In this document: in pieces, positions 34,701 to 40,567 of the stretch
How the letters are laid out: each line of letters starts with the position of its first letter
How positions within the stretch are numbered: the stretch's first letter is position 1
NCBI GenBank assembly: GCA_965235115.1
Contig: OZ249436.1
Coordinates: 32,428,001-32,492,000, forward strand
Length of the DNA stretch: 64,000 bases
Direction: 5' to 3'
DNA from: Laetmonice hystrix
Taxonomy: Eukaryota
The notes under the pieces: generated by a model
Told to the model about the DNA's origin: nothing
What the model saw: only the letters and a program-made list of their open reading frames with translations
The model's database searches: none
Position numbers and translations under genes: made by a program

Positions 34701-37700
34701 CCGATATAATATCAGACGGAAAACTTGTTTTGGGTGAAATGTGGTCATCATATTTGGAGCCCAGTCATTACTTTTAGCTGTGAACATGTCTGTCATGTGA
34801 GTCACCAAATTAAGTCATAGATGTAGGCCTATTCTACCTCAATTTAATTGCCCAATTATTGCGACAGCGAAACAGTAACAACGTGTATCAGTGCTCGCTT
34901 ATTTTCTTGGCACATGGCACAGTCGGAATTCTCATACATTGTACTTAGAAATTGACATCGTTAATAACTTTCATCCTCAGACGTGGAAATCATTAAGAAT
35001 TCTCATCCTCATAAATTGGCATCACTGTACAGGTGCTTCCTTCTCGTAAAGTTTTGGCTCGTTGCTGCACGTGTCCACTCTGGCTCCCAAGCGGCGATGA
35101 AATCACCTCTGGTGTAAAGTGACTCTGGGATAGCACGGCTTTCTTTTGTACTTTGTCGACCACTGTCGGAAATTACGCTGACTGAAATTGCCGACGACCA
35201 CCAGTCCTACCAGATGGCTTCAAACGTAATAGAGCGTATTAATGCAATTTCTATAGTTGAACATTATCATATCTTGCTAGTAGATCTTGTATTATCAGAA
35301 CCATCATTCAAATTCGATGTAATACAGAAATTCATTAACGGAAATTAACAATTTCCTAAGTGGATCATATTATAGATTGTTTACTGTCTGCAAAATCCAC
35401 GCCCCTTCGTTTCCCCCTGTCCAGGTGATAAAGCGTAATGTACTCCGACGTTAGTAAAAAAAAACTATACACTCAAAAATAGGGTGATGAATCAGGGATT
35501 TGGCAAAATCAGGACAATGTAGTAATTTGTACAGAAAGGGTAACTCTTGTGCTTCAATTTGTGGTTGATTCGCTCAGATGCGACCAATAATAAAGAAATA
35601 CTTGCCATTTTTCAAAACCCGCTAACATACGACTTGCGCCAAGTGAGACAGTCATTTCAATTGAAACAGAATTGATGGAATCAATGAAAAGCAATCGAAT
35701 GGGCCCTTGTCATGGCTGTGGTCATAGATGGCATAATCAGTTCAGATCTGTGGATCTTGCTCATAAGCCTGCGTGTAGCTGCTAAAGCCTGGTGCGTCCA
35801 CAGCTTACACCCCAGCAAAGGACTTTCTTGATCAATAAATTGGCGGAGAATCAGAGTGCCACTGTGTAGCTGGGGTGTAAACTGTGGACGCACCATGCTT
35901 TAGCTGCAGCAAGCAGGACTATGAGCAACATCCACAGATCTGAATTGATTATGAAATCCATGACCACAGCCATGGCACTGGTCCGTTTCATTACTTTTCA
36001 TTACTTCCATTATGCTTTGTTTGAATTGAAAAGCCGCGTCTCACTTGGCGCAGGTGGTATTTTAGGGGGTTTCTGATTAATCACCCTATTTTTGAGCGTA
36101 TAGGTTTTTTTTACTCACCCTGTAGAGGCCGAACATTACATAAGAGAAACCGCCGAAGGTTGCTAGAATGGCACGTGCCAGGACAGACAGAGTTTGATTC
36201 GAGTTACGACAATAGGTAGAGAATTTAGAGTAGGCTTATCTCTGGTAGTACCCGGTCATTCAGTGGTATTGCTGATTCACGATCATTACGCTGTAGAACA
36301 CACCCAGCCAGTGGCGTAACTAAGTTTTTTTTGCTGGGGACAGAGTTGAAAATGGGGCGGGAGCGAATGAAATTGGTAGCGCTACTACTGATATTCGCCA
36401 CCATCCCATTTGGTGGGGGGCGAATCTCCTGACTTCCTGTACCCAGCCCTCCTTTGGCTCCCAGCAGGTACTTACAGAGCAACGCCCCCACACACACCCG
36501 GGACGGGCTGAGGGCTTTGTACTGCTCATATCTTGTGTCCATTGAATTAGGACAGGGAGACAGAACAAGCAAACGAATCTCTAGTGACATTGTGAGGTAA
36601 TAACGAGACAAATTGGTAATCATGCCACCGCTGTGGAGTTTCGCAAACAAAGATGAAGTGAACAGACGATACTGATGTCGGTAATTAGAATATGACAGTC
36701 TCGTGACGAGCTTGTGGCATATTATGTTGTTTGGGGATTGGACACTGTCAGTGGTATATCCTGACGTTTGCTTCGGGTCCTATACAGGTACCACAAAGTC
36801 TGTAGTTTGAGTACGGTAGTATTTATTAACACGGTATTAAACCTGTTTGTTCAGTTGAAGGGTATTTACTCTCCATACTGGTTGTCCTTACTGTCCATAC
36901 TGGATCCTGATATTGGAGAGTTAATTTGTCAATGGAGACCTAACATTGGCTGCTTTTTACTGAGAGAAAGGCAAGTGTGCCAATACAAACTGTTTAGTTT
37001 CATTTCAGGCCATGGCAAATCTGGTGCTTCGGAGGGAGTATGAAACAAAGGAAAATAAGTGAGTTTGTGGGTTAATTAATGTGCAAGTAGTATGAGTTGC
37101 AATGGTGTGGCGGGTGTCTGTGATGATCAATTCGATATTTTAATTAATTTTTAGGCCTACATGTAGAAAATGTGGAAATGGCCTAAAGGGCCTGATCCAC
37201 TGGCCCAGCCGGCCGGCCGATTTTGCTATGGTTGGCCGTGGTGGACAAAAATCAAGAATGCATCTCACCGAAAGATAAAATCGTGTATTTGTGATTTTTT
37301 ATTTTACGGCCAATTATAACGGTGAAATGCCTAAATCGGCCGGCGGGCCGGCCAGGTGTCACCAGACTGTAGCTTGAGCCAATCTTACTAAGGTCCTGGT
37401 TAGTTACTAGTGTGTGTGTGTGTGCGGGGGGAGGGGGGGGGTCAAGTATACATGTGGTAACGTGGGGATTCTGCCGATTGTTAGACAACCAGAAGCGGGT
37501 AGAGGTGTGTATGTAGTATAATAATGTGGGGTTCCTGACTGTAGGCGATTGTTAGACTAGCAGCAGCCGGTCGAGCCGTGTATGTAGTATAATAATGTGG
37601 GGTTTCTGACTGTAGGCGATTGTTAGACAACCAGAAGCGGGTAGAGGTGTGGGTGTAGTATAATAATGTGGGGTTTCTGACTGTAGGCGATTGTTAGACT

Positions 37701-40567: not shown

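Follow-up and report, generated by a model that had tools for sequence, protein, structure and literature searches.

A tandem array of the exon 14 acceptor in a POLR3C gene, resembling the mirages described in lancelets

The closest described counterparts of the array presented here are the mirages of amphioxus, a little-known class of repeats. According to PMC3087553, the unit of a mirage lies across an intron-exon boundary, the authentic copy stands at the end of the array, and many copies, not all, carry a splice dinucleotide. The same text gives unit lengths of 10-160 bp and, for the globin gene BflGb6, 3-6 copies, among which the edge units are excluded from homogenisation. Amphioxus mirages keep many AG and GT signals, and splicing is reported as undisturbed (PMC3087553, PMC3902484); the mirages in Adh (Adh3), troponin C and PGBD5 are likewise reported to leave splicing intact (PMC3902484). 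A donor-type relative is found in intron 7 of human F7, where a 37-bp VNTR presents 5-9 identical donors and the exon-adjacent one alone is used (PMC1557585). Internal tandem repeats at human exon-intron boundaries (PMC2812944) and splicing-associated tandem repeats (PMC10078293) have also been described. Our literature search, with most subscription journals outside its reach, found no article describing an array in POLR3C or mirages in annelids.

The window, by which we mean the whole stretch of 64,000 nt that was analysed, contains a gene identified as POLR3C (RPC3/RPC62) on the basis of matches to PDB sequences. The gene model of 1584 nt has a stop codon at its end only. Each of the three exons searched (2, 12 and 14) matched human RPC3 and nothing else, at residues 50-129, 408-441 and 459-504 (E 1.1e-8), respectively, and the order of the matches is colinear. 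No exon is missing from the model, because the 50-nt exon 13 supplies 17 residues between RPC3 residues 441 and 459, and the name exon 14 used in the initial annotation is correct when coding exons are counted (Table 1). Intron 14 measures 1300 nt and introns 4-11 measure 115-273 nt (241 nt for intron 4). Intron 12 (29115-37008) reaches 7894 nt, and introns 12-14 as a group are far longer than introns 4-11; several elements with ends made of G/C runs are found in intron 12, which suggests a local accumulation of repeats at the 3' end of POLR3C. Other short tandem repeats in the introns of the gene, at 34028-34094 and 39991-40131, lie clear of exon edges.

Table 1. Positions of the POLR3C features and of the repeat array in the window
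Feature	Position	Strand	Basis
POLR3C (RPC3/RPC62), coding region of 15 exons, 527 aa	22788..40567	+	Exon model; human RPC3 matches
Exon 13, 50 nt	37009..37058	+	Donor GT at 37059
Intron 13, 1977 nt, of which ~1560 nt are array	37059..39035	+	Exon model
Copy 1 and the decayed intron-like sequence at the 5' edge, AG lost	37444..37544	+	Alignment, 7-nt gap over the acceptor
71-bp minisatellite, 22.5 units	37474..39068	+	TRF, unit cutting, head-to-tail joint in run contigs
Copies 2-22, 21 decoy acceptors	37545..38997	+	Exon-like parts begin at 37545 + 71n
Copy 23, intron-like segment with the authentic acceptor (AG at 39034-39035)	38998..39035	+	Start of the spliced contig at 39036
Exon 14, 150 nt, opening with the 33 nt of the last repeat copy	39036..39185	+	RPC3 match, spliced contig
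Exon 15 to stop codon	40486..40567	+	Joined to 39185 in run X4 contig

The array is by far the strongest tandem repeat of the window: its TRF score of 2581 (37475-39069, period 71, 22.5 copies, 90% matches, 0% indels) stands well above all others among 24 TRF rows, and the 64,000 nt contain no further occurrence of its unit on either strand. Cutting into units yields 23 exon-like starts, from 37474 to 39036, at a spacing of exactly 71 nt. Each unit consists of 33 nt resembling exon 14 and 38 nt resembling the end of intron 13, in agreement with the composition given by the initial annotation (about 38 nt of intron end plus about 33 nt of exon start). An acceptor TAG precedes each copy from 2 to 22, and counting these AG-bearing copies returns the 21 decoy 3' splice sites that had been announced, approximately, ahead of the real exon 14. 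It had also been stated that only copy 23 runs into coding sequence; this is the case, and the exon that it opens is the one matching human RPC3 at the residues given above. The authentic acceptor lies wholly inside the repeat and has a pyrimidine share of 0.48, the lowest among the 14 acceptors of POLR3C (0.52-0.74 for the others). The 23 copies comprise 12 different unit strings, chiefly of two types in partial alternation. Over the intron part, the decoys are close matches to copy 23; over the exon part, they diverge from it. Copies 20-22 are the most diverged. The hypothesis that variable sites are enriched in the exon-like part was rejected (11/33 vs 6/38 in the intron-like part, p 0.10).

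This anatomy is that of a mirage. The array is a head-to-tail tandem duplication within a gene (71 bp x 22.5), its unit spans the boundary with copy 23 as the terminal copy that forms exon 14, and 21 of the 22 extra copies keep the AG, copy 1 being the exception. The interior is homogenised, with nearest-neighbour differences of 0-2 bases for copies 2-19, and the edges are excluded from this process, with 4-6 differences for copies 20-22 and a decayed copy 1. As in BflGb6, the 3' end of an intron plus the 5' portion of the following exon (exon 2 there) are repeated in tandem in the upstream intron. As in the amphioxus mirages, most copies keep the AG and the unit length falls within 10-160 bp; the main spliced contig enters at the authentic site, which the regular mRNA uses in those mirages. 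The differences concern the host, which is not a cephalochordate and is probably an annelid, the copy number, which is 22.5 against 3-6 in BflGb6, and the gene itself, since POLR3C is an essential housekeeping gene of single-copy type. Moreover, allelic and somatic length variation is a feature of the amphioxus mirages, whereas the POLR3C array is known from the contigs of one sample. We conclude that the array is very probably a mirage of the kind already described in lancelets, here outside the cephalochordates, and that it provides a clean further example of this class.

Four sequencing runs (X1-X4) carry the stretch; they come from one sample and one study, consist of contigs only, and none is recorded as RNA. 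Their contigs were compared with 38998-41200, which covers a single repeat unit followed by exons 14 and 15 with the intron between them. The head-to-tail joint from 39068 back to 38998, a return of 71, is present in contigs of 4/4 runs, and the depth on the unit is 1784, 2191 and 1798 in X1-X3, vs 54-58 for the next contig. The tandem structure is thus present in the run data, which may be the assembly's own data. This possible identity, together with the single sample, is what could be invoked in favour of an assembly artefact, along with a copy number that depth does not confirm: the unit/flank ratios of 31, 40 and 33 compare with 84 in a naive unitig simulation, and the reading of depth as copy number was rejected. 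An artefact nevertheless has a nearly negligible probability in our view, given the go-back-71 joint in every run, the large pile-up on a single unit and the 12 distinct unit strings with their patterned variants. The runs also contain allelic differences, namely a synonymous A>G in exon 14 at 39087, present in X1 and X2, which could serve allele-specific expression, a 9-nt insertion in intron 14 at 39379, and a cluster of 5 changes just past the stop codon (40571-40585). At 39478-39785, intron 14 holds a high-copy interspersed repeat, with depths from thousands to >20000 in X1-X3 and many loose ends at both borders.

Run X4 was taken as RNA-like since its contig skips intron 14. In its spliced contig of 1155 letters, at a depth of 26.2, 39036-39185 runs directly into 40486-40570 and 0 letters differ; the contig begins exactly at 39036, despite the 38 nt of upstream intron in the compared stretch. 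The other 920 letters lie off that stretch; exons 13 back to 3 total 949 nt, and the fit between the two lengths indicates that these exons are presumably the upstream partner, although a micro-exon immediately ahead of 39036 would also be compatible with the rows shown. In this one sample, with X4 read as RNA-like and the partner exon assigned from length, the transcript enters exon 14 at copy 23, and the spliceosome bypasses 21 near-identical acceptors, as the initial annotation had proposed. A second contig of X4, of array type (101 letters, depth 5.4), carries the go-back-71 joint with 4 differences that several copy types fit, and starts inside the unit, off the acceptor; the unique intron bins of this run are at zero depth. 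Unspliced RNA, or DNA summed across the numerous copies, would account for it; read-through from a decoy is a further possible source. The main contig shows the regular splicing reported for mirages, next to an array-type contig and in data where contigs hide rare forms. No decoy-spliced joint occurs among the X4 rows shown, an absence that carries little weight since contigs drop rare forms and since a further 449 loose ends and 43 joints, as well as 113 letter differences and 2670 pieces, lie outside these rows.

Starting from the observed anatomy of the array and its observed presence in the run contigs, we infer that it is very probably a neutral, homogenised minisatellite, an acceptor-type mirage in which the copy nearest the downstream donor is chosen by exon definition. 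A 71-nt piece across the border of intron 13 and exon 14 would have been duplicated in tandem, then expanded and homogenised in the manner of a minisatellite through slippage, unequal exchange and conversion, with all extra copies ending up in intron 13 and being removed by splicing. Copy 23 would win as the sole copy with a unique exon body of 117 nt and a proper donor 150 nt away, the upstream copies offering merely pseudo-exons of 31-35 nt with middling donors, or over-long exons. Both introns flanking exon 14 exceed 1 kb, which would lead to exon definition. With long flanking introns, the sites closest across the exon are favoured, according to PMC9225289; for 3' sites, the same paper reports that the overall upstream preference is merely reduced, not reversed, under exon definition, and the exclusive use of the last of 22 acceptors is therefore not automatic. 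No RNA structure marking copy 23 was found, the segment 38894-39191 folding like its shuffles (z 0.17). Protein-damaging variants, such as a stop at codon 5, may drift among the decoys and be barred from spreading into copy 23, which would explain why the decoys match this copy in the intron part and differ from it in the exon part. It can be hypothesised that conversion homogenises everything except changes that are unacceptable in the coding sequence of copy 23.

The comparison with the human F7 VNTR is instructive in this respect. In both cases a terminal unit of the minisatellite straddles an exon-intron border, splicing takes the copy next to the exon and the identical pseudo-sites are silent. 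However, F7 is of the donor type, with its authentic site first in transcription order, and 5'-to-3' scanning explains its use. In POLR3C, first-come scanning cannot be the selector, because the authentic acceptor is last in transcription order. The array therefore offers a sharper test of exon definition versus first-come scanning than donor-type arrays such as F7, and the initial suggestion of a natural test of exon definition is substantiated by the passing over of 21 near-identical acceptors and the entry at copy 23. In addition, thanks to diagnostic bases at +14, +16, +20 and +24, it is possible to attribute junction reads to copy types among the 22 near-identical acceptors.

The consequences of decoy use were evaluated for the 21 decoys. 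Codon 5 reads TAG in 12 of them, AAC in 7, AAG in 1 and TAT in 1, and read-through meets a stop inside the unit in 21/21; the initial description of a Lys codon AAG turned into an in-frame TAG in many copies, with a stop within the unit in the rest, is accurate. The same holds for the donor-like motifs after the exon-like part, GTATGT being present in 14/21 decoys and GTGTGG in 7/21. The best internal GT of each unit agrees with the donor consensus (the canonical 9-position one) at 6/9 positions, vs 4-9 for the 14 real donors of POLR3C. These internal donors equal 5 of the 14 real ones and beat one, and they would give frameshifting pseudo-exons of 31 or 35 nt. A GT at +34, with 4-5/9 consensus positions, would permit an in-frame, stop-free micro-exon of 33 nt in 9/21 decoys (copies 3, 5, 9, 10, 12, 14, 16, 20 and 21). 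The claim that decoy use leads to a premature stop thus stands for read-through and fails for these nine copies when the +34 GT is used. It is on them that a nascent gain of a micro-exon or intron would rest, in which splicing would occasionally retain a stop-free unit as an in-frame cassette of 33 nt and so lengthen the protein by 11 residues; a route to new introns has been proposed for mirages (PMC3087553, PMC2812944). We regard such a gain as very unlikely, for the frameshifting GTs located 2 nt away outscore those at +34, no joint of this type is present among the X4 rows shown, and a duplication of 11 residues in a conserved region of RPC3 would have no evident use.

The initial annotation also suggested that copy number could tune Pol III subunit output through premature-stop transcripts. 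In such a regulatory splicing sink, decoy acceptors would result in a premature stop and in NMD, and the number of copies would set the output of POLR3C. A poison exon or AS-NMD element yields an alternative product with a premature stop, which is made and is raised by an NMD block, and the element itself is conserved across species. The 21 intact acceptors share the branch region and the tract, their read-through always ends in a stop, their best internal donors shift the frame, and array sequence occurs in the RNA-like run at a depth of 5.4 vs 26.2 for the spliced form, all of which would be compatible with a sink. Human tandem repeats can moreover alter splicing (PMC10078293), a reported example being the ABCA7 VNTR. 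The likeness of the POLR3C array to the human boundary repeats is that minisatellites lie over splice junctions and are potential cryptic sites or origins of new introns, but for the human repeats there is transcript evidence of altered splicing.

We consider a sink very unlikely, and the tuning claim is not supported, although a leak at low rates would be compatible with the data. A decoy product is unseen among the X4 rows shown, where contigs drop rare forms, and this point is weak. The stop variant needs no selection: nonsense represents 8/90 possible single changes in these codons, and chance would place one or more such changes in 12 derived alleles with a probability of 0.67, so that selection for the TAG variant was rejected. 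The TAG at codon 5 is also redundant with a downstream stop present in every unit. Published mirages are reported without aberrant mRNA (PMC3087553, PMC3902484). Conservation speaks neither way, with 0 look-alike windows in the other scanned genomes, from collections that hold few animal genomes, and with 596 pattern matches to exon 14 in metagenome contigs of which 0 were confirmed as related loci. The array would acquire greater importance only if decoy use were measurable and tied to copy number.

Selection could also have acted to make the array harmless. Copy 22, combined with the real donor, would form an exon of 221 nt and is the sole decoy giving a near-normal exon; it has 4 private changes, at -24, -6, +1 and +7. 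A targeted disabling of this copy was rejected (0.065, post hoc, for at least 2 of 4 private changes in -7..+1). Exon 14 itself differs from the rest of the gene, with a GC3 of 0.83 (39/47 synonymous third positions) vs 0.42 (188/452) across the remaining 14 exons (Fisher p 4.5e-8), a value that is likewise high in its non-repeated part (30/36), and with a CpG observed/expected ratio of 0.89 vs 0.50 in the other POLR3C exons. It could be proposed from these data that the array is tolerated but actively compensated, selection having disabled the most dangerous decoys, as three of the four private changes of copy 22 (-24, -6, +1) and the lost AG of copy 1 would suggest, and having strengthened exon 14, as its GC3 and CpG ratio would suggest. 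This proposition is highly improbable. The pattern of copy 22 is post hoc, the private changes of copies 20 and 21 miss the acceptor, and divergence at the edges is normal for such arrays according to PMC3087553. Two vWA exons of the window have a GC3 of 0.70-0.75, FEM1B reaches up to 0.90 in its 5' part, and biased gene conversion or local methylation loss would give the same GC3.

The GC3 of exon 14 is thus odd for POLR3C, not for the genome. It could result from biased gene conversion beside an unstable repeat, from a local loss of gene-body methylation, or from selection for exon recognition, and it is left unaccounted for by the neutral-mirage explanation. As a separate observation, exon 14 looks like an exon of unmethylated type in a CpG-depleted gene, right at the array. 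A broader form of splicing selection, in which a small, copy-number-dependent share of transcripts is lost to decoys and NMD, exon 14 is recoded and the nearest decoy is disabled, has a very low probability in our assessment; if true, the dosage of an essential Pol III subunit would be set by a length-variable minisatellite, and an exon would have been remodelled by its own duplicated acceptor.

Several neighbouring genes and elements were noted in the window. An intronless FEM1B-like ORF of 633 aa (17241-19142) shows a compositional switch near codon 200, from GC3 0.62-0.90 and CpG observed/expected 0.96 to GC3 0.28-0.45 and 0.39. Among the 120 matches listed of 1527, one match of its protein reaches 88% and the best named match 59% (Lingula), and no cephalochordate is named. 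In a quick tree of the query and 61 of the 120 listed proteins (the 38 highest-ranking ones minus a long outlier, together with named representatives), it falls in a 27-sequence group (SH-aLRT 97) that is separate from those of deuterostomes, ecdysozoans, molluscs and nemerteans/brachiopods. By elimination, the host is probably an annelid. A multi-exon gene on the minus strand (20300-22680) is placed head-to-head with POLR3C, its apparent start lying ~120 nt from the POLR3C start codon; by eye, it resembles a NUDIX hydrolase of the NUDT17 type. Exons with vWA-like domains and a Gly-X-Y collagen stretch, at 8127-13476 on the minus strand, probably belong to one collagen VI-like gene. Short repeats related to one another (periods of 18-50 bp) form two clusters in opposite orientation, at 45880-46200 and 47975-48464, which are possibly the ends of one large element. 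Finally, two inverted copies of a ~350-bp element, at 23020-23371 in POLR3C intron 1 and at ~46200-46550, are identical at 339/352 aligned bases, and by eye the element seems to bear terminal inverted repeats and to be MITE-like.
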